Of a DNA stretch of 64,000 bases, positions 29,293 to 64,000 are shown one piece after another (the stretch's first letter is position 1; every line of letters begins with the position of its first letter). The position numbers and the translations under genes are program-made. This stretch comes from an uncultured Gemmatimonadaceae bacterium. Its GTDB lineage: Bacteria; Gemmatimonadota; Gemmatimonadetes; Gemmatimonadales; Gemmatimonadaceae. Where the stretch lies: assembly GCA_963822945.1 (NCBI GenBank), contig CAWGJO010000024.1, forward strand, positions 64,001-128,000, given 5' to 3'. Below the pieces are notes generated by a model. The model was not told the DNA's origin and ran no database searches. It was given only the letters and a program-made list of their open reading frames with translations.

Positions 29293-29334
29293 GAATCTCT
29301 GGGCTAGAGGGGCCGCGCGCGGCGCGCGAATCGA

Positions 29335-35221: not shown

Positions 35222-35230
35222 GTCGTGCCC

Positions 35231-40024: not shown

Positions 40025-40953
40025 TGGGATCCTCCCTGTGGAGTGCCGGCCGAGCCAGGCGCGGGGTGCGCCGGCACGGGAGTGAGTTTGACCATCTCGG
40101 CGTGGAACGCACGCCACTGCGCGGCGTCGAGCAGCGCGACGCCGGCTGCGAATCCGTTGTCCGGCGGTCCCGCCATGGCCACGCGCGCGAAGGTCTCGAC
40201 GCTCGTACGCCAGCCGGGCGTCTGGGCCAGCACCTGGGCGGCGCGCTGCGCATTCCCGACCAGCCGTCGCCGCAGCATCGCCGGTCTACTGGAATCGGCG
40301 GGCGACGGGAGCGCGACGGCGCCCGGCGCCGAGAACTCGGCCGCCATGTGGAGCATGACGGTGGGCACCGCCACCTTGTTCGGCGCCCGCGGGCCCTCGG
40401 ACAGGTGATACTTGGCGTCCACCTTGGCGATCTCGGCAGCGATGTCGTCGTGATGGTCGAAGTGGCCCAGCGACTGCACGTAGTGGGCGACCGCAAAGCG
40501 GTCGGCGGGCGGGAGGGCATCGAAGGCGGCCATCCCGGTGCCTTTGATTCCGTCGGTGAGCGTGGTGTAGATGTCGGCGATCGTGTAGCCCACGGTCCAA
40601 CCCTTTGGGCTGGTGAGATTGCGCGGACGTGGGGTGAGCGCCACGGCTGCGGCGCCGTCTCCCTTGCCGGCGGCGCCATGGCAGACCACGCAGTCCGTGT
40701 TGAAGAGTTGCTTGCCCTGGGCCAAGGCCTGCGGCGTGACCGTGAAGAGCTGTTTGAGGTCGAGGCCGGGAGCCGGCTTCCCGATGACCGTCGGGAAGAT
40801 CGTGGGATCGGAGTCGGCACGTGTCGGCGGCTGGTACTTCAGTCGCGGTGCTTCACGTCCCTGCAGCACCGTGTTGCCGCCGGCGATGACCAGGCCGAGC
40901 GTGATGAGCGCGCTCCCGACCACCATCGCGATGCGTTTGGATTGATAAGGCAT
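40021..40953 (-). CDS. Membrane-anchored monohaem c-type cytochrome with extra C-terminal domain
   Basis: N-terminal TM, CVVCH, PRPRNLT, GIKGTGMAAF. Confidence 0.85.
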   Translation of the reverse strand: MPYQSKRIAMVVGSALITLGLVIAGGNTVLQGREAPRLKYQPPTRADSDPTIFPTVIGKPAPGLDLKQLFTVTPQALAQGKQLFNTDCVVCHGAAGKGDGAAAVALTPRPRNLTSPKGWTVGYTIADIYTTLTDGIKGTGMAAFDALPPADRFAVAHYVQSLGHFDHHDDIAAEIAKVDAKYHLSEGPRAPNKVAVPTVMLHMAAEFSAPGAVALPSPADSSRPAMLRRRLVGNAQRAAQVLAQTPGWRTSVETFARVAMAGPPDNGFAAGVALLDAAQWRAFHAEMVKLTPVPAHPAPGSAGTPQGGSQ

Positions 40954-40966
40954 ACGGGGGGTCCTC

Positions 40967-47572: not shown

Positions 47573-47750
47573 GGCGCTTCACCGAGTGGGGCGCGGGCTG
47601 GACGCGGCGCGCGGGGGCCTTAAGTCCCCGGGAAACGCGCGACGCCGTTCCCCGCGGCAGGATTCGCCGGAGCACCGACGCGCTCAGCATCAGCGCTCCG
47701 AAGGCGGCGGCCATCTGCGCGAGCGTCTGGCGACGACTCTGTACCTGCAT
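47565..47750 (-). CDS. Small (61 aa) membrane/Tat-like protein between actA and actB
   Basis: AGGAG SD, MQVQSRRQTLAQMAAAFGALMLSASVLRR, stop overlaps actB start. Confidence 0.6.
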   Translation of the reverse strand: MQVQSRRQTLAQMAAAFGALMLSASVLRRILPRGTASRVSRGLKAPARRVQPAPHSVKRHG

Positions 47751-47770
47751 CTCGTGGCTCCTGAGTCCGT

Positions 47771-48394
47771 TCATCGGTGGCATGCCGTGCAGTCCGTGGG
47801 GCCGCGCAGCGCCGACGAATCCGGCGGCAGATACGGGCCCGGATTCCGGTGGCAGTCCAGGCACTTGCCCATGCGCATGTTCATCACGCGGGACACCACG
47901 TCCATCGTCTGGACGGCCCCGTGGCACGTCTGGCACTCGATGCCGACGTTCACGTGCGACCGGTGATCGAAGTACACGTGATCGGGAAGGTGATAGACCC
48001 GCTTCCACGTCATCGCGGTATCCGTGGCCAATCGCGCCACGACTTGTGTGTTGATATAGGTGCTGTCGGCCATGGTGATGAACCGGTGACAGTTCATGCA
48101 CGTCTGGACAGCGGGGATGGTGGCGTGCCGGCTGCGGTCCGCATTCGTGTGGCAGTACTCGCAGGGAATGCGGTTCAGCCCCGAGTGCACGCGGTGGGAG
48201 AATGGGATGGGTTGCACCGGCGCGTAGCCAAGGGCAAACCGCGCGGGCTCGGCGGCCCAGCCGACGACCAGCATCGTCGCGATGGCCAGCACCGCTCCCA
48301 ATGGAAACACGACACGCCAGAAACGATCACGCGGATGCACCCGCAGCCCCCGAAGCAAAGCGTCAGCCAATCGCTCCACCATTGACTGCGTCAT
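47771..48394 (-). CDS. actA: Alternative complex III subunit A (pentahaem cytochrome c)
   Basis: TM helix, QPIPFSH, five CxxCH (CEYCH, CMNCH, CQTCH, CLDCH, CTACH). Confidence 0.92.
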   Translation of the reverse strand: MTQSMVERLADALLRGLRVHPRDRFWRVVFPLGAVLAIATMLVVGWAAEPARFALGYAPVQPIPFSHRVHSGLNRIPCEYCHTNADRSRHATIPAVQTCMNCHRFITMADSTYINTQVVARLATDTAMTWKRVYHLPDHVYFDHRSHVNVGIECQTCHGAVQTMDVVSRVMNMRMGKCLDCHRNPGPYLPPDSSALRGPTDCTACHR

Positions 48395-48470
48395 TGCGAG
48401 GCCTCTGAGGAGGGAAACGGGTGGGGGGGCCGCCCGTGCAATGTCGCGAGCCAATTGATTGACACGTCAT

Positions 48471-48704: not shown

Positions 48705-49061
48705 TCAGTCTACCGGCTCGGCGTGGTCGAGGCGCCAACGGGCCGGTGTGCCGCATTCGGTGCACGCGGCGTGTCCGTCGCCGTACAACACCAGGTCGGT
48801 CTCGCGATCGCAGGCCGGACAGGTCGCCCGCACGGTACGGAGTCCGTCCACCGGCAGCCCGTTGCGCACGATCCGCGCGACCATCGCATCGGGGCCCACG
48901 GCCCCGAGCGGGCAGAGGGCCCCGGTGCACTGGTCGCCCACCTCGAGACACACGACCTCGGAATCCAGCAGCGTCGCCTGCCCGTCGTGCTCCGGCGCGT
49001 CGGTGATGACGAGATTCACTTCGCGCTCGCAGGCGTTGCAGAACAGCCGGTGGCTCTTCAT
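48705..49061 (-). CDS. Cys-rich hypothetical metal-binding protein
   Basis: GAGGAGGG SD; CNAC, C-x6-C-x4-C, CPAC, CTEC; last gene of the rnf operon. Confidence 0.7.
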   Translation of the reverse strand: MKSHRLFCNACEREVNLVITDAPEHDGQATLLDSEVVCLEVGDQCTGALCPLGAVGPDAMVARIVRNGLPVDGLRTVRATCPACDRETDLVLYGDGHAACTECGTPARWRLDHAEPVD

Positions 49062-49071
49062 ACCGCCCTCC

Positions 49072-50067
49072 TCAGGTCAACGGAATCGCTTCGGCTCCAG
49101 GGATCATGCGGCGGGCCAACGTGGTGGCGGCGGCGTGCGACAACCCGAACCCGGAGGTCGACGCCGCGTCGGCGTCGATGGCCCGGTCGCCGAGAATGGT
49201 GAGACTGTGGATCGGCGTCAGGCGCGGCGCCGCGGTGACGGGGTCCATCAGGTGGTGATACCGATGGCCGCGCCAGCGGAAGAAGCGCTCGTAGTCGCCC
49301 GAGGTCGTCACGGCGCGGTCCGCCACGTCGAGGGTCGCCGACAGTGCCGAGAGGTCGCGTGGATTGCGGATGCCCACCTTCCACGGCTCGCCCTCCGGCG
49401 AATGGCCGAGCGCGTACAGATCGCCACCAACGGTGACGATGGCATGCGCGATCCCGCGATCGCGCAGGGCGGCGGTGGCGCGATCGATGCCGTAGCCCTT
49501 GGCGATCGCTCCCAGGTCGAGATGGATGTCGCGGTCGTCGTAGCGCAACGCCGGCGCGCCATGGAAGGTCGCGAGGTCCACCTTGCGCCAGAATCCGCGA
49601 TTGGCGAGCCGCTTGACCTGCGTGGCCGGCGGCGGTTCGTGGCGGTGCAGCACGTCCCAGAGTTCCGACACCTCGCCCGCCGCCGGATCGAACCGGCCGT
49701 CGCTGGCCGACGCCCAATCGAGGGCCCGCCGCACGACGAGCGCCGTCTCCGGTCGGATGGTGACGCCTTCACGGGCCGCGCCGAGGTTGGCCCGCCCGAT
49801 GTCGGAGGTCGCGGTGAACCGGGTCATCGTGCGCTCGACCCATCGCAGCTCGGCGATCGCCGCGTCGATGGCGGCTTCGGCGCGGTGCACGTCGCCGTGG
49901 GCGACCTGGATCTCGGCGATGGTGCCCATCACCGGAATGGTCCGCTTGGTGGTTGCGATGCGGCGCCGGAAGGCGATGGGCAGCGAGAGCCCGACGAACA
50001 TACCGGTGCCGATGGTCAGGAATTCGCGCCGACCCAGCTTCGAGCGCGACTCGGGGTCAAGAGGCAT
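49072..50067 (-). CDS. apbE: FAD:protein FMN transferase with Tat signal
   Basis: GRREFL, VMGT, DLGAIAKGY, GGD, TTSGDYE, YHHLMDP, ADAAST. Confidence 0.93.
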   Translation of the reverse strand: MPLDPESRSKLGRREFLTIGTGMFVGLSLPIAFRRRIATTKRTIPVMGTIAEIQVAHGDVHRAEAAIDAAIAELRWVERTMTRFTATSDIGRANLGAAREGVTIRPETALVVRRALDWASASDGRFDPAAGEVSELWDVLHRHEPPPATQVKRLANRGFWRKVDLATFHGAPALRYDDRDIHLDLGAIAKGYGIDRATAALRDRGIAHAIVTVGGDLYALGHSPEGEPWKVGIRNPRDLSALSATLDVADRAVTTSGDYERFFRWRGHRYHHLMDPVTAAPRLTPIHSLTILGDRAIDADAASTSGFGLSHAAATTLARRMIPGAEAIPLT

Positions 50068-50206
50068 GATGATCTCCTTCGTTCCAGCGCTCGCACGAGC
50101 CGCCGGTACAACCTGTGCAGTGGCCGGTGCAGCTGCGATGCGGAACCAGGCCGTAGAGGGCGAACAGGGCCGCCCCGATCACGATGGCGATGATGGTCCC
50201 TGTCAT
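50057..50206 (-). CDS. 49-aa single-TM, four-Cys protein (NqrM-like or FeoB-associated-like)
   Basis: MTGTIIAIVIGAALFALYGLVPHRSCTGHCTGCTGGSCER; ATGA overlap with rnfA stop and overlap with apbE start. Confidence 0.7.
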   Translation of the reverse strand: MTGTIIAIVIGAALFALYGLVPHRSCTGHCTGCTGGSCERWNEGDHHAS

Positions 50207-50781
50207 CCCGCAGTCCCCATGCCGGCGAATCCCATGAACGCCATCGACAGGCACGACGCGATCACGAGCACGAGTCCCATGCGGCGCGCCACCATCGGGA
50301 TGTCGGAGAGCTCCATGCGCTCCCGGATGGACGCCATGAGCGCGAGGGCCAGGGTGAGGCCGGCCCCGGCGCCGAGCGCGAACACCAGCCCCTCGGCCAG
50401 CGTGTAGCCCCGGCTGGTCTGGAAGAGCGCGAGCCCCAGAATGGCGCAGTTGGTGGTGATCAGCGGCAGGTAGATGCCGAGCTGCCGGAAGAGCACGGGG
50501 AGGTACTTCTTGACACCCATCTCCACGATCTGCACGACCGACGCGATGACGACGATGAACGCGATCGTGCGAAGATACGGCGTGCGGGCGAGCACGAAGG
50601 TGTTCAGAACCCACACGCTGACCGCTGTGAGAATGAGCACGAAGGTGTTGGCGAGGCCCAACCGCCACGCCGTCTCGACCTTGCCGGTGACCCCGAAAAA
50701 GGAGCACAGGCCCAGGAACATCACGAGCGTGAAGTTGTTGACCAACATCGTCGAGATGAAGATCCACGAGAGATTACTCAT
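50203..50781 (-). CDS. rnfA: Rnf complex subunit A
   Basis: LVNNF..FLGLC, VQIVEM, LGIYLPLITTNCAILG, MAFMGFAG. Confidence 0.93.
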   Translation of the reverse strand: MSNLSWIFISTMLVNNFTLVMFLGLCSFFGVTGKVETAWRLGLANTFVLILTAVSVWVLNTFVLARTPYLRTIAFIVVIASVVQIVEMGVKKYLPVLFRQLGIYLPLITTNCAILGLALFQTSRGYTLAEGLVFALGAGAGLTLALALMASIRERMELSDIPMVARRMGLVLVIASCLSMAFMGFAGMGTAG

Positions 50782-51488
50782 GCGAGGGCCCTCCGTGCCC
50801 GGCGCTTGCGCAGCTCCATGACGTAGGCCACTCCCAGCAGGGCGATCCCGAGGGCGAGGAACCCGCCCGGCGGCAGCATCATGAACACCCAGGGTTCGAA
50901 GCGCGGTCCGAACAACGGATAGCCGAGGATGCTCCCGTTCCCCAGGACCTCGCGAATCGTGCTCAGCAGGGCCAGCGCCAGCGTGAAGCCCATGCCCATG
51001 CCGAATCCGTCGGCCAGGGCCCGGCGCACCGGCACCTTGGCCGCGAACGCCTCGGCGCGGCCCAGCAGCAGGCAGTTGGCGACGATGAGCGGAATGAACG
51101 GGCCCAGCGCTTTGCGAATGTCGGGCACCACGGCCGCCAGGATCATGTCGGCGAGCGTCACGAACGTCGCGATGATCAGGATGTACGACGTGATCCGCAC
51201 CTCGTGCGCGATGTACTTGCGGAACAACGACACGAACAGCCCGGAGCCGACGAGAACGAACGTCGTCGCCAGCCCCATCGCGAGGCCGTTGGCCAGCACG
51301 TTCGTGACCGCCATCGTCGGGCACATGCCGAGGAGCTGCACGAGCACGGGGTTCTCGCGGCCGATGCCCCGCCAGATGTCGGCGAGCACGGTGGCCGGCG
51401 GCGGCGCGCCCGGGACGAACTCTACGGCGCCCAGAAACCCCGGCGGGGGCGGCGCCTCCGCTGGTTCGCCGACTGGAACGGACGTCAC
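50778..51488 (-). CDS. rnfE: Rnf complex subunit E
   Basis: ENPVLVQLLGMCP, FIPLIVANC..LGRAEAFA, IREVLG, LPPGGF. Confidence 0.93.
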   Translation of the reverse strand: MTSVPVGEPAEAPPPPGFLGAVEFVPGAPPPATVLADIWRGIGRENPVLVQLLGMCPTMAVTNVLANGLAMGLATTFVLVGSGLFVSLFRKYIAHEVRITSYILIIATFVTLADMILAAVVPDIRKALGPFIPLIVANCLLLGRAEAFAAKVPVRRALADGFGMGMGFTLALALLSTIREVLGNGSILGYPLFGPRFEPWVFMMLPPGGFLALGIALLGVAYVMELRKRRARRALA

Positions 51489-52159
51489 GGTTGGCCTCCA
51501 CGATCGTAGGCTTGAAGCAGCGGGCGCCACTTGGCGATCGCATTGTTGATGATGCGAATCACGGCGCGCGACGAGATCGTCGCGCCGGAGATGGTCTGGA
51601 CCTGGCTCGGGTCGTTGCCGGAGCGCGTCTTCACGCCGGTCAGCGGCGCGACACGACCGGCGAACTGGTCGCCGAACGCGGTGTCGGTCTCGATTCGCTG
51701 GCCGAGCCCCGGGGTCTCCTGCTGGTCCAGCACCTTGTAGCCGGTGAGCGTCCCGGTCGCGGGATCGAAGCCGATCATCAGCGTGATCAGTTCCTGGAAC
51801 CCCGGCTCCGCGGCGGTCACCGCCACGCCGAGCTCCCGGCCACCGGCGTCGAAGCCGACGAACGCCTTCTGGGCGGCCTGCTTGTCCACGCCCTCGGGCG
51901 GCGTCTTCGACAGCGCCTTGCCCACCAGGTACAGCGTGTCCCACCGGGCGGGGGCTTTGAGCACCTCGCTCACTGCGCCGGCCTCCTGCTCGGCGGCGTG
52001 CCTCTGGACGGCCGGGAGCGTGAGGTTGTACACGGTGACGATGAGCCACCCGGCGGCCGCGCCGGCGATGCCGAGCGTGGCGAGCAGCTTCCACGCCGGC
52101 GTGCTCTTCTGTTCCGCCGGCGGCGGCGGCGGGACGTGGCAGTGCGGCGCGGCCGTCAT
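51485..52159 (-). CDS. rnfG: Rnf complex subunit G
   Basis: N-terminal TM, QETPGLG, flavinylation motif ISGATISS. Confidence 0.9.
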   Translation of the reverse strand: MTAAPHCHVPPPPPAEQKSTPAWKLLATLGIAGAAAGWLIVTVYNLTLPAVQRHAAEQEAGAVSEVLKAPARWDTLYLVGKALSKTPPEGVDKQAAQKAFVGFDAGGRELGVAVTAAEPGFQELITLMIGFDPATGTLTGYKVLDQQETPGLGQRIETDTAFGDQFAGRVAPLTGVKTRSGNDPSQVQTISGATISSRAVIRIINNAIAKWRPLLQAYDRGGQP

Positions 52160-53160
52160 GACGCGGTCCTCGCGGCGGTACCGAACACTCTCGGCTGCGT
52201 GGCGCGGTTGATGAACGGCACCAGCGCGTTCATGAACAGGATGGCGTACATCACGCCCTCCGGCAGCCCGCCCCAGACGCGAATCACGACCACCAGAATG
52301 CCGATGCCGGCTCCGAACACCCAGCGCCCCAGGTTGGTGACCGGCGAGGTGACCATGTCGGTGGCCATGTACACGGCGCCGAGCATGAGACCGCCCGAGA
52401 ACACCATGAACATCGCCCCCGGCCATTGCGGCCTGATGGCGTGCAGAATCGCGCTGAACACCGCCACCGTGAGGATGATGCTCACGGGAATCCGCCAGTT
52501 GAGATAGTTGCGCACGGCCAGGTACGCGCCGCACGCCAGGATCACGAGCGCCGCCGTCTCGCCCACCGACCCGCCGGTGGTGCCGAGGATCAGGTGCATG
52601 AGCGAGGTGCCCTTCCCCTCGAACTTCAGCAGTCCGAGCGGCGTCGCCGACGTCACAGCGTTGACCGCGGGATGGAGGAAGGGCGCGACGAAGAGATCGC
52701 CCTTGAGCGTGAAGAAGCCGCCACCCGCCGTGGGCCAGGTGGTGATGGCCACCGGGAAGGCCCCCTGCAGGAAGGCGCGGCCCACCAGCGCCGGATTGAA
52801 GACGTTCTGTCCGAGCCCGCCCCACACCGCCTTCCCGAATCCGATGCCGAACGCGCCGCCGACGAACACCATCCAGAGGGGCATTCCGGCGGGGAGCGTG
52901 AGCCCGAGCAGCAGACCCGTGATCGCGGCCGATCCATCGGCCAGCGACCCGCCCTTGCCGAACGCGCGTTCCGCCGCCACCGATCCGAGCACCGCCGCGG
53001 CGATGACGAGCAGCGCGCTGATGCCGAAGAACCACGCCGACGCTGCAATCACGGGAACCAGGCTGCCGACCACGTTCCACATGATGCGCGGGGTCGAGTC
53101 CGCGGGCTTGAGGTGCGGCGACGCGGTGACGATCAGCCGCGGGACGGTCGGGGCGCTCAT
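52156..53160 (-). CDS. rnfD: Rnf complex subunit D
   Basis: SPH, DGSAAITGLLL, GGLGQNVFNPAL, TSATPL, GET, MATDMVTSP. Confidence 0.94.
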   Translation of the reverse strand: MSAPTVPRLIVTASPHLKPADSTPRIMWNVVGSLVPVIAASAWFFGISALLVIAAAVLGSVAAERAFGKGGSLADGSAAITGLLLGLTLPAGMPLWMVFVGGAFGIGFGKAVWGGLGQNVFNPALVGRAFLQGAFPVAITTWPTAGGGFFTLKGDLFVAPFLHPAVNAVTSATPLGLLKFEGKGTSLMHLILGTTGGSVGETAALVILACGAYLAVRNYLNWRIPVSIILTVAVFSAILHAIRPQWPGAMFMVFSGGLMLGAVYMATDMVTSPVTNLGRWVFGAGIGILVVVIRVWGGLPEGVMYAILFMNALVPFINRATQPRVFGTAARTAS

Positions 53161-54491
53161 TGGAGGGTCGCGAGTTGGCGCCGGAGCGCGGCCTTGCTCG
53201 CCTGGAAGAGCTGGGCGAGCGGAATGTTCGACGGACAGACGTAGGCGCAGGAGCCGCACAGCATGCAGTCGGACAGGTGCATGGCCGCCATGTCCTCGTA
53301 ACGCCGAACCTGCGCCAGCTCACCGAGCGTCGACGGGTTCAGGAACACGGGGCATGCTTCGAGGCAGCGTCCGCAGTGGATGCAGGCCCAGCTCTGCTCG
53401 TTGCGCGTCTCGTCGCGCGCGAGCACCACGACGCCCGTGGTGCCCTTCACCACCGGCGCGTCGAGATTCGCCTGGGCCTGCCCCATCATCGGCCCGCCGA
53501 TGATCACCTCGGCCGCGTCGGCCGTCACGCCGTCGCAGAAGGCCAGCAGATCGCGCAGCTTGGTGCCGACGGGAACGATCAGATTCGCGGGGCGACGCAG
53601 CCCGTGACCGGAGACGGTCACGATCCGTTCCACCAGCGGCAGGCCGGTCTCGAAGACCTCGGCAATGGCGGCCACCGACCCGACGTTCTGCACCACCACG
53701 CCCACCGTCACCGGCAGCTTGCCCGACGGCACCTCGAAGCCGGTCACGGCCTTGATCAGCATCTTCTCGGCGCCCTGCGGGTACTTGACGGTAAGCGGCA
53801 GGATCTCGACGTCCAGGTCGGCGGGCACGGCCGCGAGCATCGCGGCCACGGCGTCCGGCTTGTTGCGTTCGATGCCGACCACGCACTTGGTGACGCCGAG
53901 CGAGCGCATCATCACGCGGATGCCGAACATGACCCGGGGCGCGTATTCGACCATGGTCCGGTGGTCGGACGTCAGGTAGGGCTCGCATTCGGCGCCGTTG
54001 ATGATCAGCGTGTGAACGGTGGCGTCCTTGGGCGGCGCCAGCTTCACGTGCGTGGGAAATGCCGCGCCGCCCAGCCCCACCACGCCGGCGCTCTGAACGG
54101 CACGGACCACCTCGTCGGTGGAGAGCCCTTCCCAGCGCGGAACCATGCGCGGCCGCGGGATGTGCGGAGCGTACCGGTCCACCTTGATCCGCACGGCCTC
54201 GGCCATGGAACCGTCGGGGTGCGGCCACCATCCGATGTCCACCACCGTCCCGGCGGCCGAGGCATGAATGGGCACCGACATGAACCCGTCGGCCTGGCCC
54301 ACCGGATCGCCGCGTTCCACATGATCGCCCACCTTGACGCACAGCGTGGCGGGCTTGCCCGCATGCTGCCGCAGCGGGAGTACCACCTCGTCGGGGTACG
54401 GCATGCGGCGAATGGGCAGTTGATTGGTGAGCCCCTTCTCTTCCGGCGGGTGAACGCCGTGCCGGAATCCCAGCGAAATCGCCATCGTCAA
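53157..54491 (-). CDS. rnfC: Rnf complex subunit C
   Basis: GVHP, GLGGAAFPTHVK, NGAECEPYLT, YPQGAEK, GGPMMG, CIHCGRC, CMLCGSC. Confidence 0.95.
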   Translation of the reverse strand: MTMAISLGFRHGVHPPEEKGLTNQLPIRRMPYPDEVVLPLRQHAGKPATLCVKVGDHVERGDPVGQADGFMSVPIHASAAGTVVDIGWWPHPDGSMAEAVRIKVDRYAPHIPRPRMVPRWEGLSTDEVVRAVQSAGVVGLGGAAFPTHVKLAPPKDATVHTLIINGAECEPYLTSDHRTMVEYAPRVMFGIRVMMRSLGVTKCVVGIERNKPDAVAAMLAAVPADLDVEILPLTVKYPQGAEKMLIKAVTGFEVPSGKLPVTVGVVVQNVGSVAAIAEVFETGLPLVERIVTVSGHGLRRPANLIVPVGTKLRDLLAFCDGVTADAAEVIIGGPMMGQAQANLDAPVVKGTTGVVVLARDETRNEQSWACIHCGRCLEACPVFLNPSTLGELAQVRRYEDMAAMHLSDCMLCGSCAYVCPSNIPLAQLFQASKAALRRQLATLQ

Positions 54492-54492
54492 C

Positions 54493-57400
54493 TCAGTTGA
54501 ACTTCGCGCCGCGCTTCACCCATTTCTCCAGATCCTTCTCCTTGGGGTTGAGCGGCGTGCCGGGGTGGATGATCGACACCGGGCAGCGCTCGGCCGCAGT
54601 GACGAGTTGCTGATACGTGCCGGCACTCGCGTCCTTCACGTAGGCCTGCTTGTCCGCGTTGTACGCGAACATGCGCTTGTTGAGATTGGTGCATTCGTTG
54701 CAGGTCGTGCAGCGCACCGAGTCGATGTAGGCTTCGAGCGCCAGTTCCCCGTCGTCGTCGTCTTCCACGGCCACGGTGGCCGTACCCGCCGCCACCGGCG
54801 CCGTGGGGGCCGAGGCCGTGGCGGGTTCCGCCGCGGGAGCGGGCGCAGGCGGCGGCGGTGCGGCGTCGACCGGCGCGGGGGCCGCAGCGACCGCGCTCCC
54901 CGCTCCGTTGCCGTTGCTCACCACCGCCGGCAGCGACGCCAGCAGTTCGCCGATTGCCGACCCGCCGCCGTGCCGCATCAGCCCTTCGGCCAGGCGGCGG
55001 GCGATCTGCGGCGGATAGCTGGCTTTGAGTTCGTCGATCCTGGCCTCGTATTCGGCGCGTACCGCCGACAGCCTCTGTTCGAACTCGGCGGCCAACGCAT
55101 CGGCCACCGCGTCGTGCACGGTCTGCGGGATCTCGAGACCGGCCAACTGCTTCAGCTGCGACCAGAAGTGCAGCCGCTCCTCGGCCAGGATCACCATCTC
55201 GGCGGAGACGCCGAGGCGGCGGAGCGTCCGGTCCTTGGCGACGGCCAGGATGTACGGCGTGTGGCCGTCGCGCTCCTCCACCGGGAGGGCGACGAATTCC
55301 GCAAACGGCAGCATGTCGTCGGTCCATGCGTCCGGCGGGAGTTCGGTGAAGTGCTGCTTGAACCGCGTCTCGGTGGCGGCCCAGTCGGCGATCGTGAGCG
55401 GCAGGTCGAGCGTCTGCTCCGCGCCCTCGTCGTCGAGGTACTTCATGGTGTAGGTCGGCCACGTCTCGTCGATGGACGGATTGCCGTCGAGCGTCAGGCA
55501 GTCGGCGAATGCGCCGCCGGCGTCCGGATCGTAGGTCAGGAACGGGAAGGCGCGGCTCTCCAGCGCCAGCCGCGCCGCCTGCTGCGACCAGTCGTCGGCG
55601 AGGCCGTGCTCCACGGGGCACGGCGTGTAGATATTGAACACCGCGGGCCGGCGCTTGTGCAGTCCCTTGAGCACGCCCGCCACGAGATGCGACGCCGAAG
55701 CCTGCGACGACTGGTGCACGTACGCGCCGCGATGGGCGATGGCGAGGAGCGCCAATTCCTTGCGCACTTCGCTCTTGCCGTGCTGCGCCTTGCCGTACGC
55801 CGTCATGTCGGCCACCTGCCCGGTGTAGCCCGAGGTGCAGGCCTGGCCGCCGGTGTTCGAATACACCTGCGTGTCGAGCACCACCACCTTGATCGGCTTC
55901 CCGGAGGCGAGCAGCCGAGAGAGGTTCTGGAATCCGATGTCGAGCATCGCGCCGTCGCCGCCCATCGCGAGGATCGGCGGGCAGAGGGCGAATTCGTCAT
56001 CGGTGAACTGCTTCCACGTGAGCGACCGCAGCGCGGGTTCGTGCGCCGCCGCGTCGTACGTGCCGCCGGCGAGCAGCTCGGCGCGCCGCACCGCGGCCGT
56101 GTCGTCGGCCATCTTGCGCATCTGCGCTTCGAACACGCCGATCGCGATCGACGGCGCGTCCTGGAACAGGTGGTTGGCCCACGGGAACGGATACGGATTG
56201 TACGGCCAGGTGCTCGCCCACACCGACGAGCAGCCGGTGCTGTTGGCCATGCCCATGCGGCGCACGCCCCTCGCCGCTCGGCCCCTCGACATAACGCCAC
56301 CTGAGATCGCGCAACGCGTGGAGCGAGTCGTTGATCCGGGCCAGCCGCTCGTGCTTGGCGGCGTCCACCGGCACGCTCACCGCGGCACCCGCCTTGGCGG
56401 CCGCATCGAGATCGGCCCCCGAGGCGAGCAGCTCGCGCGCCTGCGCGTCGAGGGTCTCGATGAGTCCGTCGAGCTTGGCCACCTGCGCGGCCACGCGCGG
56501 CTGCATGGACGCGTGGATGGAGGAGACGATCAGATGGACGGCCGTCTTCTCCCCGCACCCCATGCAGGCCCCGTCGCCGCCCACCATCGAGCGGTAGTTC
56601 TGCTTCCGCAGGAGCAGCGACGACAGCACCCCGATCCCCTCGTCCACGTCCGAGACGTTGACGAACCGGTCGGCGGTATCGGGCAGTTGCTCCCACAGCG
56701 TCCAGTTCCTGCGCAGCCGTTCGAGCGCCGGCTCGTCCTGCTTGATCGTCACCAGCGCGCCGTCGGGACAGGCCGCGACACAGAGGTTGCAGCCCTTGCA
56801 CGCTTCCGGATTGACGGTGATCGAGAGCAGCCCGCCGCCGCCCTTTTCCCGCGCTTCGACGGCGTCGAAGAACGGCTTGGTGCGCGCCAGCGGGAACGCT
56901 GCCAGGCGCTCCTGGATGATCGCGAACTCGCGGTCGGTCTCGGCGCGGCGGTCGGGCTCCCAGCCCATCTTGTCGGCCACCGTCGTGTAGCCGGCGGCGA
57001 ACGCCGCGGGCACGGAAAGCGATGCGTCCTTGGTGAGTTGCCGGTGCGTCTCGCGTGCCCAGTGCTTCGTGATCGGGCGCAACCGGTCGAACGTCACGCC
57101 GTTGCTCGACACGTCCATGGCCGTGGACAGCAGGTCCTCCTCGCTGTTCACGAGACCGGGGATGGCCGAGTCGGGGCACTGCGTCCAGCACTGGGCGCAC
57201 CCGGTGCACTTCTCGGCGACGAACTCCGGGACTTCCAGGCGCACACCGCTCATGTCGCGCACGGCGCCCGTGGCGGCCGGCATCGCGCTGATCGCGGCGA
57301 ACGGATCGGCAATCCCGTCCTGGCCCAGGGCGCACAGCGTGCACACCTGCTCCCAGAACCGGCCCGGGTTGCCGACGCCCTGCTCGGCCGCCGGCACGTC

Positions 57401-59572
57401 GAGCAGCGACGGAATGTGCGGCACCGTGCCGGCCTCTTCGTGCGTCTCGATCTCGACCGCCTTCACGGGCAGCACCTGATCGAAGCCGCGGCGGATCACG
57501 CGGAGGTTGTCCTCCACCACGGTCGCGCCGCGGTGGCCGAACTTCTTCTGGAACTGCTTGCGGACGCCCTCGAATACCTTCGCTTCGGACGACCCCTCGG
57601 CCGCGATCAGGCTCGACGTGCGGAAGAAGGCACCGAGGAACGCCGCCCCCTGCATGCGATACCGCATCTCGACGTCGGAGGCCTCTTCGCGCGCGATCGC
57701 GAAGGCATCGAGCACGAACAGTTTGATGTGCCGCTCGATGATCGACGACCGGACGCGCGTGGGCAGCGTGCCCCAGAACTCGTCGGGCGGGAGGTCGCTC
57801 TGGATCACGAACACGCCGCCGTCGGCCAATCCGGCCAGCGGATCGCTGTGGCGGAACACGTTCGGGTCGGGCGACAGCACCACGTCCACGTGCTTGAGTT
57901 CGCAGTTGAGCAGAATGGGGTCGTGGGCCAGCACGGCGTAGAACGTGGTGGGCTGCCCCTTCTTCTCCGAGCCGTATTTCGGGTTGGCCTTGATCTGAAG
58001 CCCGAACAACTCGAACGCCGTCATCGCCAGGTTCTTACCCATGGTGATGGCGCCCCACCCGCCCACGGAGTGAATGCGCACCGCGGTCGAGCCCTTGGGC
58101 AGCAGGTTGGGTACGGTCGCCGGCGCGAGCGCCATCTCTGCCAGGTGCGGGTACGCGTCGACCAGCTTCTCCTGCCAGATCTGGAGCTTGGGAATGCGCG
58201 TGCCTTCGCGTACGAACTCGACGCCCAGGTAGAACTGGCGCCGCTGGGCTCCCTCCGGCAGCATGTTGTTCACCGCCGCCACGAGGTCCCCGGGCTGCAG
58301 GTCGCGGCTTCCGAGACCGAAGCATCCGGAGTAGAAGTCGGGCACCTGCTCGGAGTGGAGCGCCGGAATGCCGGCGTGCGGCGCATGAGCGCCGTGCGCG
58401 CGCCCGTTCTCCACGGCCTTGGCCATGGCGGCGCGGATCTCGCGCAGCATCGGCGGATCCACGGCCAGGGGCTGGTCGAGCCGCTCCAGGACCACGACGC
58501 CGCGCTTGCCCGCCAGGAGGCCGGCCACGAGATCGGCCGGGAATGGACGGAACATCGTGAGATTGAGGACGCCGACCTTGAGACCGCGCGCCTCACGCAG
58601 ATAGTCGGCCACCGCCATCGCATTCGGAACGACGGAGCCCTGCCCCACGATCGCCCATTCGGCGTCGTCCAGCCGGTACCCGCTGGCCCGCGCGTAGCGG
58701 CGGCCGGTGAGCGCGGCGTATTCGTCGAACGCCTGGTCGGCGAGCGTCACGATATGGTCGAAGTAGAACGGGCGCTGGGCGGCCACGCCCTGGGCGTAGC
58801 TGTCCTGGTTCTGCACCACGCCGAGCATCGCCGGATAGTCCAGGTCGAACATTTCCGGAATGCGGCGCCGGATCTCGCCGAACACCATGCGTTGGGCCGG
58901 CGTGGGGGACTCGATGCGGTCCGACGGATCGCCGAGGTAGGCCTTGACCAGCGCCGGCTCGGGAATCCGCGCGCTCTCGATCACGTGGCTGGTGAGAAAG
59001 CCGTCCTGCGCGCAGATGCCCGGATTGAGCGACAGCTCGGCGATCCGGTGCGCGACGAGATTCAGGTCGGCCGCTTCCTGCACGTCCTTGGCGAACATCT
59101 GGAAGAAGCCGGTATCGTCCACGGCATGGTAGTCGTCGTGGCCGGCGTGCACGTTGAGCGCGTGCTTGGTCATCGCCCGCGCAGCGACGTTGAGCACGTA
59201 GGTCAGCCGCTTGCCGACCGCGGCGTACAACGACTCGTGCATGTAGGCGATGCCCTGCCCGCTCGAGAAGTTGGTGGCGCGGAGTCCGGACATCGACATT
59301 CCGGCCGTGACCGCCGCGGCCGCGTGTTCCCCTTCAGGCTCGAAGAACAGCAGGCGCCGGCCGTTCACGTTCTCCTTGCCCTCTGCCACCGCCGCCGCCC
59401 AGCCTTCCCCCATCTGCGTGGAGGGAGTGATCGGGTACGCGCCCGCCGCTTCGCCGGCCGCCGTTTCCATGGCCACCACCGCCGCGCTGCCATCCAGCGC
59501 GCGCGGGATGCCGGGGTACGGCGGCGAAGTCGTCTCGCCCGACGTGGGCTTGCCCTTGGTCCAGAGTTTCAT
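54493..59572 (-). CDS. Large (~1690 aa) pyruvate:ferredoxin oxidoreductase-like protein with C-terminal ferredoxin domain (one extra base near 56259)
   Basis: YPITP, VAAR, QDGFLTSH, CTGCAQCWTQCP/CKGCNLCVAACP, ACMGCGE, NSTGCSS, GGDG..YSNTGGQ, C-terminal CTTCNEC..CP. Confidence 0.9.
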
Positions 59573-60423
59573 GCTGCCTCGCTCCCGACGGTCTCCGGCA
59601 CGCGAGCGAACTGCGCACCGTTCAGCCAGACGATTGCGCCGGTCGGGCACCGCTCGATAGCGCGATGCTCGGCCTGCGTGATGCGTTCGTAGTCCACCAC
59701 CGCCACGCCGCTGTCGATGCTGATCAATCCTTCCGCGGCGTCCAGCACGCACTTCCCGCACGCCGTGCAGGCCACGCGGCACTGCTCCAGCGCGTCATCC
59801 CCGTTGATCAGGTTCCGGCACTGCACCAGCAGGTGCGCATCCAGCGGCAGGATCGTGAACAGCCCCTTGGGACAGGCGTCCACGCAGTCACCGCACGCGG
59901 TGCAACGGGCGAGGTCCACCACCGGCAGGCCCGTGTCGCTCATCTGAATGGCGTCGAAGGTGCACGACACCGCGCAGTCGGCGAGACCCAGGCATCCCCA
60001 GGCGCATCCCTTGGCGCCGCCGGCCACCGACGCGGCCGCGGCGCACGTGGGAAGCCCGCGGTACTCGGCCTGGCTCACGGCCACGTCGGTGCCGCCGGCG
60101 CAGAGCAACCGCGCCACGCGGCGCGAGGCGTTGCCCGCATCCACGCCGAGGAAGTCGGCGATCTGCTTGTGCACCGAGTCGCTGGCCACCGTGCACTCCG
60201 ATGGCGCGATCTTGCCGTCCACGGCGCCCTCGGCGAACGCCCGGCAGCCGGGATGCCCGCAGGCGCCGCAATTGGCGTTGGGGAGCATCTGCGAGACGAT
60301 CTCGATGCGGGGATCCTCCCACACCCAGAGTTGCTTGTTGGCGAGGGCGATGAAGACGCCGAACACCAATCCGACCCCACCCAGGACCATGATCGCATGG
60401 AGGGTCACCGTCAGCGCGCTCAC
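59569..60423 (-). CDS. rnfB: Rnf complex subunit B
   Basis: N-terminal TM, LPNANCGACGHPGC, CAWGCLGLADC, CTACGDCVDACP, CTACGKC. Confidence 0.92.
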   Translation of the reverse strand: MSALTVTLHAIMVLGGVGLVFGVFIALANKQLWVWEDPRIEIVSQMLPNANCGACGHPGCRAFAEGAVDGKIAPSECTVASDSVHKQIADFLGVDAGNASRRVARLLCAGGTDVAVSQAEYRGLPTCAAAASVAGGAKGCAWGCLGLADCAVSCTFDAIQMSDTGLPVVDLARCTACGDCVDACPKGLFTILPLDAHLLVQCRNLINGDDALEQCRVACTACGKCVLDAAEGLISIDSGVAVVDYERITQAEHRAIERCPTGAIVWLNGAQFARVPETVGSEAA

Positions 60424-60424
60424 G

Positions 60425-61429
60425 TTACGCCTTCCCCTGCAGGCCGGATTCGGTGAGCAGCCACGACGCGATGCGCTCGACCGCATCGGACGCCCCGACC
60501 GCCGGGGCGCCGGCGCCGGCCGGCGTGGGCACGGCGAACGGCGTGCGGGCGATGTCGGCCAGCAGCTTCAGGTCCTCGCCCATCTGAAAGGCGCTCAGCC
60601 CGCGGACGGCGCGCTTCGGCGCCTCCGGCAGGTGCTGCACGGTGAGCCGCTGCCAGGGTTCGCGTCCGGCGAGCGGATCGTGCATGAACGTCGCCGAGCC
60701 CTCGGGCATCATGGCGGCGATCGCCGGTCCATCGAAGGCCGCCGCCCGGTCGAGGCCGGATCCGTCGGTGGTCTGGAGCACGAAGGCGCCGGGCGTGATG
60801 CACCGCGCCAGCGGAGCCGGCGCGCTCGGTCCGCGCACCACGAGCACCAACTTCTCGCGCCCGTCGGCGAAGTCGGTCAGCGCGCCGGCGTGTACGTCCG
60901 CCCCGTCCACCTCGATCACCAACGGCGGGGCGAACCGCCGCTCGGTCTTCGTCCAGCGGTGGAACTCCACGGGGTCGAGGAGGCGGTCGTGGTCGGCGGC
61001 CACGTACCGGCCGCCGCGCGCCAACTCCGTCAGCATCACGGCGCCGAACGCCAGGCCCGCCGCGCTCAACGCCGCATCCACCACGCTCGCCAGCCGCCCA
61101 CCCGGCGGCACGTCGGCAACGAACAGGTCGTTGCCGCGCGCCGCCACGCCTCGAAGCACGTCGGCGGCGCGATGGAGGGCCGCCACCGCGGCATCGTCCA
61201 CGCGGCGGGCCTTCGGGAAGAGGGCAGCGAACGCGGCCGCGTCCACGCGTCCGTCGGCGAATTCGCCGAGTGCCGACCGTGCGCCGGCGGCCGCCACTTC
61301 GGTCGTGGCGGCCCGGGCCGCGAGAAAGTCCTCGGCCTGGGCCAGCGCGCCATCCACCAGCGTGCGAAATTCGGCAATCGGCTGCGCCAGCGCCGTGAGC
61401 GCCTGGGCCGTGCGGGGATCAGACGGCAT
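60425..61429 (-). CDS. Hypothetical protein: degenerate paralogue of the PFOR TPP-binding (beta) domain
   Basis: Collinear by-eye alignment to the downstream PFOR C-terminal region; no GDG..N motif, only one Cys. Confidence 0.75.
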   Translation of the reverse strand: MPSDPRTAQALTALAQPIAEFRTLVDGALAQAEDFLAARAATTEVAAAGARSALGEFADGRVDAAAFAALFPKARRVDDAAVAALHRAADVLRGVAARGNDLFVADVPPGGRLASVVDAALSAAGLAFGAVMLTELARGGRYVAADHDRLLDPVEFHRWTKTERRFAPPLVIEVDGADVHAGALTDFADGREKLVLVVRGPSAPAPLARCITPGAFVLQTTDGSGLDRAAAFDGPAIAAMMPEGSATFMHDPLAGREPWQRLTVQHLPEAPKRAVRGLSAFQMGEDLKLLADIARTPFAVPTPAGAGAPAVGASDAVERIASWLLTESGLQGKA

Positions 61430-62375
61430 AACGGTCGAGCTCCGCGTCGATGAGGGCCACCCGCTCCGCGGCCGTGCGCGGCGGTACGCGCCGCGTCTCC
61501 TCGTAGCGGGGTTTGGAATCGTCCCGGAAGAACACGCCGAGATTCACGCGGTCGGTGTCGCCGGCCATGCGCCGGGCAGCGTCGAGGTCGTGCACGTCGT
61601 GCCCCACCTGGTTCTGATAGAGCTTCGCCAACTCGGGCACTACGACGCCGTCGTCGTGCACGAGCATGTTGATGTTCGATGGATCCTGCACCGCCTTCAG
61701 ATAGATGGCGCTGGAGTAAATCGGGCAGCGCTGCAGGATGCGCACGAAGCTGAGTCCCCGATGCTGCCGCGCCGCGCGAAGTGTCGCGTACAGGTGGGCG
61801 GGCACCCACTCGGCCGTCTGGGCGACGAACGAGGCGTTGGTGACGCCGAGCGCCACCTGCAATGGGTTCAGCGCCGGAAGCCAGCTGCCACGCGGCTGCG
61901 TATTGCTGGGAAATCCCTGCGGCGTGGTGGGCGACGTCTGCTGCTTGGTGAGTCCGTAGATGCCGTTGTCCAGCAGCAGCACGGTCAGATCGAGATTGTA
62001 GCGCAGCGCGTGCACCCAGTGGCCGGCGCCGATCGAGGTGCAATCGCCGTCGCCCATCACCACGAAGATGTTGAGGTCGGGACGCTGCAGCCGGATGCCC
62101 GTGGCCACGGGCAGCGCGCGGCCGTGGATGCCGTGGAAGCCGTAGGTCTTCAGATAATGCGGGAACCGGCTCGAGCATCCGATGCCGGACACGAACACCG
62201 TGTTCTCCGGCGTCAGCTGCTCGGCGGCCAGCAGCCGCTCGACCGCCGTGAGGATCGAGTGGTCGCCGCAGCCGGGACACCAGCGGGCACGCGCCCCTTC
62301 GTAGTCGTTGATCTCGTACTCGTAGTCTTCCGCGTTCAGTTCGAGCACGGGAAGATGACAGTGGGTCATCGTCAT
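61419..62375 (-). CDS. korB: 2-oxoacid:ferredoxin oxidoreductase beta subunit (KorB-like)
   Basis: WCPGCGD, SGIGCS, HGIHGR, GDGD, DNGIYGLTK.Q.SPTT, QRCP. Confidence 0.92.
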   Translation of the reverse strand: MTMTHCHLPVLELNAEDYEYEINDYEGARARWCPGCGDHSILTAVERLLAAEQLTPENTVFVSGIGCSSRFPHYLKTYGFHGIHGRALPVATGIRLQRPDLNIFVVMGDGDCTSIGAGHWVHALRYNLDLTVLLLDNGIYGLTKQQTSPTTPQGFPSNTQPRGSWLPALNPLQVALGVTNASFVAQTAEWVPAHLYATLRAARQHRGLSFVRILQRCPIYSSAIYLKAVQDPSNINMLVHDDGVVVPELAKLYQNQVGHDVHDLDAARRMAGDTDRVNLGVFFRDDSKPRYEETRRVPPRTAAERVALIDAELDRYAV

Positions 62376-64000
62376 GAGGCGCGTCCTCCGCGCGGCATGT
62401 GGCCGCGGATGGCGTCGGCGATCGCGCCGGGACGCAGTGGCTCGCCCGGTACGCGTGTCCAGCAGTCGACGTCCACGAGCGTCGCGTTGCGCAGCAGGAT
62501 GCTGAGCTGCCCGCGCCGCCGGTTCTCTTCGGTGATGTACGGATCGCCGGGTTCGTCGCTGTAGTTGATCTCCACCGTCATCACCTTCTTGAAGCGGCGG
62601 AAGATGTCGCGGAGCCCCGGTTCGAGCGGGGAGAGGAATCGCAGGTGCAGCGACGAGACCTTGAGGCCTTCGGCGCGCGCGCGATCCACGGCTTCCTCGA
62701 TCGCACCCTTCGTGCTCCCCCAGCCGACGATGAGCAGGTCGCCCTTCGCATCGCCGTACACCGCCGGCGGCTGCAGCAGGCTCTGCAGTACGGCGAGCTT
62801 GCGGCTCCGCATCGACGACGAACGTTGATGCACGCCCGAGCTGTACGCCACCTTGCTGCCCTCGTCGTGCGAGAGCCCGGTGACGGTGTGCATGCCGCCG
62901 GCCTGGCCGGGCACCACCCGGGTGGAGAGCCCCGTCTCCGGATTCCACTGGTAGGGTTTGTGTCCGTCGGGCACCGGGCTCAGGTCCACCGGTTCGGCGA
63001 ACCAGCGCTCGTCGGGCTTGGGCCGTTTGAACGGCGTCACGCCCGTGGCCAGGTTGGCATCGGAGAGGACCATCACCACCGCGCGGAACGTCTCGGCAAT
63101 GCGGCGCGCCGTGATCATCACGTGGAAGCACTCCTCGATCGTCGCCGGCGCGATGATGACGTGCGGAGCGTCGCCCGTCTGGCCGTAGAGCGCGGCCAGC
63201 AGATCCGACTGTTCGACCTTGGTCGGCAGTCCCGTGCTCGGCCCGCCGCGCTGGACCTCGACCACCACCAGCGGCATCTCGGTCATGATCGCCAGGCCGA
63301 GAAATTCCGTCTTGAGCGCGAGTCCCGGCCCCGACGTGATCGTGAAGGCGACCTTGCCCGAATACGACGCGCCGATGGCGACGCCGGCGGCGGCAATCTC
63401 GTCCTCGGCCTGATGCACGATCCCGCCGAAGCGCTCGAACACCTCGCTCAGGTAGTGCGACACCGACGTCGCCGGCGTGATCGGATACATCGCGCACATC
63501 TCCATGCCGGCGGCAATCGCGCCGAGGCCGATCGCCTCGTTGCCGTTCATCACGACGAGCGCGTCATCCGACGGCGCGGGGGCGACCTCGATCCGCAGAT
63601 CGAGATGCTCCTCGGCCCAGGCGTATCCGAGTTTCAGGAGGGCGACGTTCTTTTCGTAGACCTCCTCGCTTTTCTTGCGGAAGGTGTAGGCGATCTGGTC
63701 GCGGATGCGGTCCATGTCGCGATCGTAGACGTACGCCAACAGCCCGAGCGCGAACATGTTCTTGCCCTTGCGTGGATTGTCCACCACGGTCAGGCACTGC
63801 TCCTCCATCGGGACGGGGATGATCCGGTAGTCGCGCGTGGACAACTCCTTCATGGCCTGTTCCCACGCCGCCCGGATCTCCGGGTCCTCGTCGGTCGCCC
63901 ACTTGTTCTCCACCAGCAGCACGGCATCCGGGGCGAGCGCGTCGAGGCGATGCCGGGCCAGCAGCACCTGCTCGTTGAACGCCACGGCGAGTTGCGTCGC
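62372..64000 (-). CDS. korA: 2-oxoacid:ferredoxin oxidoreductase alpha subunit (KorA-like), 5' end outside window
   Basis: GNEAI, YPITPAT, QAEDEIAA, TSGPGL.LK, QRGGPSTGLPT, GWGST. Confidence 0.92.
   Translation of the reverse strand, partial: ATQLAVAFNEQVLLARHRLDALAPDAVLLVENKWATDEDPEIRAAWEQAMKELSTRDYRIIPVPMEEQCLTVVDNPRKGKNMFALGLLAYVYDRDMDRIRDQIAYTFRKKSEEVYEKNVALLKLGYAWAEEHLDLRIEVAPAPSDDALVVMNGNEAIGLGAIAAGMEMCAMYPITPATSVSHYLSEVFERFGGIVHQAEDEIAAAGVAIGASYSGKVAFTITSGPGLALKTEFLGLAIMTEMPLVVVEVQRGGPSTGLPTKVEQSDLLAALYGQTGDAPHVIIAPATIEECFHVMITARRIAETFRAVVMVLSDANLATGVTPFKRPKPDERWFAEPVDLSPVPDGHKPYQWNPETGLSTRVVPGQAGGMHTVTGLSHDEGSKVAYSSGVHQRSSSMRSRKLAVLQSLLQPPAVYGDAKGDLLIVGWGSTKGAIEEAVDRARAEGLKVSSLHLRFLSPLEPGLRDIFRRFKKVMTVEINYSDEPGDPYITEENRRRGQLSILLRNATLVDVDCWTRVPGEPLRPGAIADAIRGHMPRGGRAS

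Follow-up and report, generated by a model that had tools for sequence, protein, structure and literature searches.

Pyruvate:ferredoxin oxidoreductase (PFOR) genes have been reported beside rnf genes before. In the Solemya velum symbiont, PFOR genes lie between rnfB2 and rnfC2 of the rnf2 cluster, and pyruvate was suggested there, in one sentence and without a test, as the electron donor of Rnf (Dmytrenko et al. 2014, PMC4287430). Rubin-Blum et al. 2019 report rnf clusters that are co-located and co-transcribed with por genes (PMC6315080), and Table S1 of that paper gives, with expression values, a cluster of the Escarpia laminata symbiont in the order sucD, sucC, por, rnfB, por-like, korB, korA, nuoF*. 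The excerpted text of a November 2026 PFOR review (PMC13768988) mentions neither a PFOR fused to a ferredoxin nor one encoded within an rnf operon. Herein, we analyse an operon at the end of a 64,000-nucleotide stretch (hereafter, the window) from an uncultured Gemmatimonadaceae bacterium (contig CAWGJO010000024.1, positions 64,001 to 128,000), in which genes for a long PFOR-type enzyme (POR), a two-subunit 2-oxoacid oxidoreductase (KorAB) and a pseudo-subunit (hyp) are interleaved with those of a complete Rnf complex. We consider it somewhat likelier than its alternatives, at a probability of roughly 0.55, that the products of this operon assemble into a module carrying electrons from 2-oxoacids to Rnf by way of a swinging ferredoxin arm, in which hyp would serve as the adaptor for KorAB. 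Given that the co-location of por and korAB with rnf is already in print (PMC4287430; PMC6315080 supplement), the novelty is lower than might be supposed from an earlier note on this DNA, and lies in the combination of known parts with a tethered ferredoxin and pseudo-subunits; of these two, or of an Rnf in Gemmatimonadota, we found no account in the open-access literature.

The long POR and its tethered ferredoxin

The 13 genes of the operon are all on the minus strand of this Gemmatimonadota genome (placed by the labels of homologs), in the order korA-korB-hyp-rnfB-por-rnfC-D-G-E-A-microORF-apbE-Cys ORF, and the 12 junctions from korA to the Cys ORF measure -4, -11, +4, -4, +7, -4, -4, -4, -4, -4, -11 and +10 nt. 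Gene content, order, strand and tight junctions were thus as the earlier note had read them (13/13 genes; -11 to +10 nt). It had also regarded rnfB as moved out of its usual place, but the rnfB-first order rnfBCDGEA has been described (PMC3534657, PMC5317091, PMC4014512), and the real oddity is the insertion of por between rnfB and rnfC. KorAB, POR and Rnf are each single-copy in the organism's own genome (G000, 88% complete).

In the window, a single surplus base at 56261 breaks por into two frames. The base is absent from two close relatives (L033 and L034), each of which encodes a single 1692-aa protein, and from one contig each of the RNA runs X1 and X16; comparable breaks occur in unrelated genes of the same assembly, such as actB. 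The break was treated as an assembly error in a gene encoding one protein of 1692 aa. Its domain order is I-II-III-V-VI. The Thr of YPITP, the catalytic Glu, the Arg, the GDG motif, the Asn and the 12 cluster Cys (19 positions), which make up the thiamine pyrophosphate (TPP) site and the ligands of three clusters, are kept in 109-111 of the 111 aligned homologs; the equivalents of T49, R132 and N1239 are kept. Because of this retention of catalytic and cluster residues, POR looks like an intact enzyme, whose substrate would most likely be pyruvate. The TIGR02176 equivalog cut-off (911 bits) is missed; the scan used the two frame pieces, which score 299.2 and 96.5 bits, and their sum is still far under the cut-off.

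Beyond its coiled-coil tail, POR continues into a linker and a single-cluster ferredoxin domain (Table 1). The linker is the least conserved segment of the protein, with a length of 46-92 residues (median 62) and a composition of 32% Ala and 16% Pro, and the ferredoxin domain has four invariant Cys (111/111 rows) and the shortest tree length among ten segments compared. The POR tail is the only PF13370 match in the genome. The earlier note had seen no free ferredoxin in the operon, but a ferredoxin domain is fused to the POR C-terminus, and a small stand-alone ferredoxin is also encoded in the genome (G000:C37, ~19300-19560, plus strand; motifs C-x7-C-x3-CP and CxxCxxCxxxCP). The absence of ferredoxin is therefore no argument for direct wiring of the enzymes to Rnf. 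The frame of the free ferredoxin runs on, probably through another assembly slip. No flavodoxin was found in the 88% complete genome. A single-sequence AlphaFold2 (AF2) model of POR 990-1692 reached a pLDDT of 38.4 and was not used.

All six Rnf subunit genes are present, and their best matches are to Rnf rather than Nqr. The cofactor motifs of the complex are in place, namely the flavinylation Thr of RnfD and RnfG, the paired Cys of RnfA and RnfE, two 4Fe-4S motifs in RnfC and a Cys-rich RnfB. The meaning of these motifs follows in part PMC12174285. RnfB scores just under the TIGR01944 cut-off (65.3 against 68.7 bits), and 19-22 Cys were counted in every operon copy examined.

The pseudo-subunit, KorAB and sister operons

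The hyp protein had no match in Pfam, NCBIfam, PDB sequences or the ESM Atlas, and Foldseek gave none at E<=0.001, the top entry being a PFOR at E 0.011. A hyp profile aligns to residues 1149-1366 of the long POR, including the family-specific insert (probability 67%, E 5.2e-5). The AF2 model of hyp (pLDDT 87.7) has its best fold match in PFOR 6cin_A 806-1170, with a Z of 8.3 that lies near the tool's reported background (rmsd 6.6, 194 aligned); other TPP domains score lower. Each moderate yet in agreement, the profile and fold results support descent of hyp from the TPP domain of POR. The Mg-binding DTQVYSNTGGQ loop is deleted in hyp, the GDG Asp position is variable (D in 90/150) and no Cys column is conserved (maximum 32% of 150 rows), so that the GDG motif, Mg Asn loop and proximal-cluster Cys expected of an active beta subunit or domain VI of a 2-oxoacid:ferredoxin oxidoreductase (OFOR) are not conserved. 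On these grounds hyp is regarded as a pseudo-enzyme, in line with the pseudo-subunit reading of the earlier note. Four sequence clusters of 457-479-aa proteins consist of hyp, the POR's tail and ferredoxin; a metagenome scan with such a protein returned 8 loci, none encoding one. A weak hyp match at G000:C21 was dropped when inspection showed no matching gene there. A complex prediction for POR 990-1550 with hyp 1-330 scored 0.01 (mark, 0.32), and as its controls did not fold it is no evidence either way.

KorAB is a two-subunit enzyme, with an alpha subunit of order III-I-II and a beta subunit carrying the TPP motif (KorB motifs WCPGCG, GCSSR and GDGD). Domain V is missing, as described for two-subunit OFORs (PMC13768988), and CxxCxxC is absent from 82 KorA and 116 KorB sequences; lacking distal clusters, KorAB would therefore have to be reached by its carrier directly. 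KorB scores 233.9 bits for TIGR02177, under the cut-off of 261.9, and that family or a close one is its best match. The best solved relative of KorA is the Magnetococcus marinus 2-oxoglutarate:ferredoxin oxidoreductase (OGOR; 6n2n_A, E 2e-84). PAEI is found in 75/82 KorA and GCSSR in 112/116 KorB sequences, and the PAEI loop and the GCSSR arginine align with 6N2N residues 43-46 of alpha and 63 of beta, residues of the M. marinus enzyme that Chen and co-workers reportedly showed in 2019 to have a role in specificity. In addition, three of the KOR-only sister operons described below (L179, L191 and L192) hold sucC and sucD between a dead por and rnfC. From these clues, 2-oxoglutarate would most likely be the substrate of KorAB.

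The earlier note had proposed a survey of gene order, and the order was found to be kept across the class: korA to rnfC is conserved in 58/58 related loci, each with exactly one ferredoxin tail (59 loci were flagged as spanning these genes; L097 has no korA and was dropped). Likewise, korB lies ahead of hyp in 89/89 loci, korB-hyp-rnfB-por is found in 30/30 short loci, and overlaps are kept to the base (korB>hyp, -11 in 86/90; rnfB>por, -4 in 75/85). Since the genomes are kin, these locus counts are descriptive only. With RnfC as the phylum-wide marker in place of the POR C-terminal part, 65/301 phylum genomes are over the cut-off, 52 in the window's class and 13 in one family of another class, of which 7 fetched loci show a stand-alone rnfCDGEA; the denominator includes four unpublished genomes (G057, G182, G157 and G097), all negative and without weight in any other claim. 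Matches to hyp occur in 53/301, 52 of them at E<=1e-30. Within the window's class, hyp at that threshold and RnfC have 51 genomes in common, the two mismatches being contig ends inside por, and no Rnf other than that of this operon was seen in the genomes sampled from the class (52 of the 301). A genome scan confirmed 265 hyp relatives, the best 80 being mostly Gemmatimonadota with several Acidobacteriota; hyp is present in 2/201 Acidobacteriota genomes, one of them the centre. The whole operon is carried by the cultured Gemmatirosa kalamazoonensis (L113). In two loci, a second korAB-like pair or a korB-like gene lies upstream of the operon (L069:994-2591 and L134:45-671).

Sister forms of the operon occur in Acidobacteriota, Bacteroidota and Gammaproteobacteria. 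The ferredoxin tail was found in 23/401 genomes of the class labelled Gammaproteobacteria, where 20 regions were fetched for 30 listed matches. A live POR with its ferredoxin and rnf genes, without korAB or hyp, is present in 9 of the 20 regions and in Persicobacter (L114); we call this layout POR-only. A further 9/20, the KOR-only layout, have korA-korB, a pseudo-subunit (820-875 aa, a hyp homolog) that carries the ferredoxin, rnfB and a dead POR. Of the other two regions, one ends after the pseudo-subunit and one (L184) has korAB with a three-ferredoxin pseudo-subunit and no rnf. The dead POR (1240-1600 aa) has no YPITP, no SNTGGQ loop and no ferredoxin tail, and keeps two CxxCxxCxxxC motifs. 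Most of the 820-875-aa pseudo-subunits are matched by the hyp profile (E 3e-9 to 4e-4), so that hyp appears to be a trimmed form of them. A comparison of the two layouts thus indicates that the ferredoxin switches carrier, the pseudo-subunit goes with KorAB and the POR body outlives its catalysis. Three metagenome loci combine a pseudo-subunit, a live POR with tail, rnfB and a further POR-like gene; in one of them (L173), a stop separates POR and tail. In the KOR-only L183, the tail is in a separate short frame.

The RnfC sequences group by operon type rather than by host. In a 41-row tree, a branch separates each architecture from the rest (support 100/99, 95/79 and 100/99), and the RnfCs of two genomes that hold both gammaproteobacterial operon types fall on separate branches; the outgroup is too narrow to address a joint origin of the architectures. 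Several variants were seen among the sister loci. An extra RnfC/NuoF-like gene (~410-420 aa) lies ahead of korA in L183, L191, L192, L193 and L196, and corresponds to the 'nuoF*' of PMC6315080 Table S1. In the POR-only L114 and L178, rnfB does not precede por but lies after rnfA and an FNR-like gene. At L184:7137-10070 (plus strand), a pseudo-subunit adjoining korAB has three tandem copies of the linker-ferredoxin tail. In G549, a 98-codon 'free' tail abuts a pseudo-subunit and korA of the same locus is likewise fragmented, so this tail was not counted as a free ferredoxin.

Covariation of branch rates was assessed for 45 pairs over 50 loci, with branches that are not fully independent and with linkage as a possible contributor. 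The hyp-KorA pair had a rho of 0.46 (95% 0.28-0.62), third of the 45 pairs behind two known partnerships, KorA-KorB (0.54) and the two POR halves (0.47); the median was 0.11. There was no signal for hyp-RnfB (0.12).

A proposed assembled module and its alternatives

In the proposed mechanism, the intact long POR and the two-subunit KorAB would oxidise their 2-oxoacids, the lone ferredoxin on the POR leash would swing between the Fe-S clusters of these enzymes and RnfB, and Rnf, in passing the electrons on to NAD+, would pump H+ or Na+. The structural partner of Rnf would be the body of POR, and hyp, a dead copy of the POR TPP domain, would attach KorAB such that the same arm reaches it. The likeliest use in this respiring organism would be extra energy conservation at low oxygen, replacing pyruvate dehydrogenase (PDH) and 2-oxoglutarate dehydrogenase (OGDH). 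Assembly seems the simplest account because there is one leashed ferredoxin per operon, a pseudo-subunit wherever there is KorAB, and a POR body that is kept even when dead. The earlier note had proposed that both oxidoreductases may be functionally linked to Rnf by direct wiring to RnfB. The link is supported by the comparative genomics; the idea of direct wiring without a ferredoxin calls for revision, the likely carrier being the POR-tethered ferredoxin.

Several observations weigh against this reading. The free ferredoxin on C37 could serve KorAB. Two metagenome loci (L170 and L171) encode a long POR with its ferredoxin, while their fetched flanks contain neither rnf nor kor genes, and L184 pairs korAB and its three-ferredoxin pseudo-subunit with no rnf gene in a 20-kb locus. 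In G279, ~15 kb of unrelated genes separate por from rnfC, and L111 retains hyp with korAB largely missing. Branch rates gave no signal for the ferredoxin tail and RnfB (-0.04) or for hyp and POR domain VI (0.11), and the homology of hyp to POR is itself moderate. Four E1 dehydrogenase genes, which we take from their sequences to be PDH E1-alpha, SucA and two fused E1s, are over the cut-off in the genome; with PDH- and OGDH-type E1 genes present, the module would not be the sole route. Finally, the selectivity of PFORs for their partners is weak in vitro (PMC13768988).

Several of these points suit the alternative that survives best, which we nevertheless regard as somewhat unlikely: a co-regulated pathway without assembly, in which the POR tail is an ordinary diffusing carrier, KorAB uses free ferredoxin, hyp just stabilises KorAB or shields it from oxygen, and the operon serves joint expression and horizontal transfer. 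The ferredoxin on C37, the POR genes without rnf neighbours in L170 and L171 and the split operon in G279 agree with it, and the PMC6315080 supplement takes co-location as ferredoxin recycling. Such a pathway leaves unexplained, however, why 9 KOR-only loci retain a dead two-cluster POR at the position that separates rnfB from rnfC, and why the single ferredoxin moves between POR and pseudo-subunit.

A second alternative concerns direction only and is compatible with assembly. Rnf would use the ion gradient to reduce ferredoxin with NADH, and the two enzymes POR and KOR would act as pyruvate and 2-oxoglutarate synthases in anaplerotic or reverse tricarboxylic acid (TCA)-type carboxylation. Rnf and OFORs are reversible (PMC12174285, PMC12337175), transcripts of the KOR-only sister cluster are reported from an autotrophic symbiont, where it goes under the label 'rTCA cycle cluster 2' (PMC6315080 Table S1), and the genome encodes a NiFe hydrogenase large subunit (G000:C26:21604-23154, plus strand). 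Complex I, alternative complex III (ACIII), succinate dehydrogenase and the E1 dehydrogenases are, in contrast, the kit of a respiring heterotroph; the oxidative direction appears likelier in such an organism, and reverse use unlikely. ATP citrate lyase was not found in the genome by a search that, run without a working positive control, is uninformative.

It is less probable still that electrons pass along a rigid wire, in which KorB, POR domain V and RnfB would place their clusters close enough for tunnelling inside one fixed supercomplex, with the ferredoxin tail branching off to export electrons to other enzymes. Dead PORs do retain exactly the two domain-V cluster motifs, and the N-terminal part of POR covaries weakly with RnfB (0.25, 95% 0.06-0.45). 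A long variable linker with a highly conserved ferredoxin domain, one tail in each complete operon examined, better suits a mobile internal carrier. That por is a pseudogene in a decaying operon, as the frame split at 56261 might suggest, can be dismissed as very improbable in view of the intact 1692-aa relatives, the two RNA-run contigs and the likewise broken frames of actB and other unrelated genes.

If the assembled module is real, its leashed and dedicated carrier would give oxygen-respiring or microaerobic bacteria a further coupling site in the oxidation of pyruvate and 2-oxoglutarate, or could alternatively drive carboxylation, with no leak of low-potential electrons to the cytoplasm. 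A bolder and tentative extension, possible but clearly short of an even chance, is a widespread membrane-docked supercomplex with two TPP enzymes on Rnf via pseudo-enzyme scaffolds and one arm insulated from soluble ferredoxin. Such a complex would parallel those of PDH and OGDH but pump ions, the ferredoxin arm replacing the lipoyl arm. G. kalamazoonensis, as a cultured carrier, makes the reading testable. For annotation, the 'por' and 'por-like' genes of sister clusters are a trap, as they may be dead scaffolds.

Other features and comparison with known systems

The coordinates of the operon are collected in Table 1.

Table 1. Genes and domains of the operon, listed from korA downstream (window positions).
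Feature	Position	Strand	Description
korA	62372..64000 (start 270 nt beyond window)	-	632 aa; alpha subunit III-I-II; TIGR03710 539.9 bits, over cut-off 482.75
korB	61419..62375	-	318 aa; beta subunit with TPP domain and a single proximal 4Fe-4S site; PF02775
hyp	60425..61429	-	334 aa; cofactor-less paralog of long POR domain VI; probable KorAB adaptor
rnfB	59569..60420	-	N-terminal hydrophobic helix, FeS domain, polyferredoxin part, 20 Cys; PF04060, Fer4 and PRK07118 matches
por	54493..59572	-	gene of long pyruvate:ferredoxin-oxidoreductase type; relatives encode 1692 aa; assembly has an extra base at 56261
Ala/Pro-rich linker, POR coiled-coil tail to ferredoxin domain	54736..54933 (approximate)	-	46-92 residues, median 62
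tethered single-cluster ferredoxin domain, POR C-terminus	54493..54735	-	CxxCxxC...CP; PF13370 E 1.7e-8
rnfC	53157..54485	-	442 aa; TIGR01945 529.4, over 245.95; two CxxCxxCxxxCP motifs
rnfD	52156..53160	-	334 aa; TIGR01946 299.9, over 207.05; TSATP motif
rnfG	51485..52159	-	224 aa; TIGR01947 101.8 against 102 (at the line); PF04205 over cut-off; SGAT motif
rnfE	50778..51488	-	236 aa; PRK12405 224.9, over 184; two Cys motifs
rnfA	50203..50781	-	192 aa; TIGR01943 214.9, under 229.3; PF02508 over cut-off; two Cys motifs
micro-ORF	50057..50206	-	49 aa; hydrophobic N-terminus and four Cys; homologs in 6 other loci
apbE	49072..50067	-	flavin transferase; PF02424 237.4 bits; RRxFL motif near N-terminus
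Cys-rich ORF	48705..49061	-	118 aa; zinc-ribbon-like; only sub-threshold zinc-ribbon matches

One homolog of the micro-ORF passes PF12669 (FeoB-associated Cys-rich), for which the window's own peptide gives E 1.6, and none of 6 homologs matched the NqrM family at E<=5. Its anatomy and its position beside apbE make it a possible Fe-S maturation factor analogous to NqrM (DUF539), an analogy that draws on PMC12174285. The RRxFL motif of ApbE is twin-arginine-like. The Cys-rich ORF is present in some, not all, related operons; L117, L127 and L129 have two adjoining copies of this zinc-ribbon-like gene, one long and one short.

Further subunits, which the earlier note had thought might lie beyond position 64000, were not found upstream of korA, where only a 149-codon ORF (no Pfam match) and a tRNA-Leu are present. 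RNA-run contigs cover the operon in 30/30 bins for X1 and 23/30 for X16; runs with small shares were left out, and the contigs derive from mixed relatives and cannot show a single transcript or an expression level. A scan for promoters and terminators yielded no more than expected by chance.

Genes of both complex I and ACIII, which the note had ascribed to the organism, are found in the window. A complete-looking ACIII operon lies directly downstream of the rnf operon (40021-48454, minus strand), with genes for cytochrome c, ActB (in two frames), an NrfD-type ActC, ActD and an extra cytochrome c; two more ActB-like genes are on contigs C9 and C17. A functional tie to this neighbour was rejected, as actC was absent from every other locus examined (many end before or soon after rnfA). 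The complex I operon starts within positions 1-8902 (minus strand), where genes for succinate dehydrogenase and malate dehydrogenase also lie, and an isocitrate dehydrogenase family gene is at 29138-30241. A cluster at 32223-37036 (minus strand) with FAD oxidoreductase, proline racemase family, DHDPS family and aldehyde dehydrogenase genes resembles, we presume, hydroxyproline catabolism, which would give 2-oxoglutarate.

Among described enzymes, the M. marinus OGOR (6N2N) is the nearest solved relative of KorA and aligns in the PAEI loop and the GCSSR arginine; its excerpted description mentions no pseudo-subunit or Rnf link. The long POR shares the order I-II-III-V-VI, the catalytic residues and the 12 cluster Cys with the one-subunit PFORs (Desulfovibrio africanus 1B0P, Moorella thermoacetica 6CIN; NifJ), but is ~500 residues longer, through helical inserts, the coiled-coil tail, the linker and a fourth cluster domain, and its N-terminal part reaches 299 bits for the NifJ family TIGR02176 against the cut-off of 911. 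A form of this kind is absent from the section of the 2026 review that deals with domain composition (PMC13768988).

The rnf2 cluster of the Solemya velum symbiont resembles the present operon in its rnfBCDGEA order with PFOR genes between rnfB and rnfC, whereas korAB, a pseudo-subunit or a fused ferredoxin are not mentioned in the excerpts of that paper (PMC4287430); we infer, from the description rather than from sequence, that its PFOR is the same long POR. The 'rTCA cycle cluster 2' of the E. laminata symbiont has the same order as the KOR-only operons found here (PMC6315080 Table S1), and was read there as an ordinary PFOR with ferredoxin recycling (PMC6315080). In the KOR-only loci that match it, however, the counterpart of por is dead and the ferredoxin sits on the por-like protein, and the operon of the window differs again in having a live tailed POR and a trimmed 334-aa pseudo-subunit.

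With the canonical Rnf (Clostridium tetanomorphum 7ZC6), the complex encoded here shares the six subunits, the flavin- and Fe-binding motifs, ApbE and an RnfB with a mobile domain and a polyferredoxin part. Whereas described Rnfs take their electrons from soluble cytoplasmic ferredoxins, the operon of the window contains both the putative donor enzymes and the tethered ferredoxin (PMC9588780, PMC12174285).

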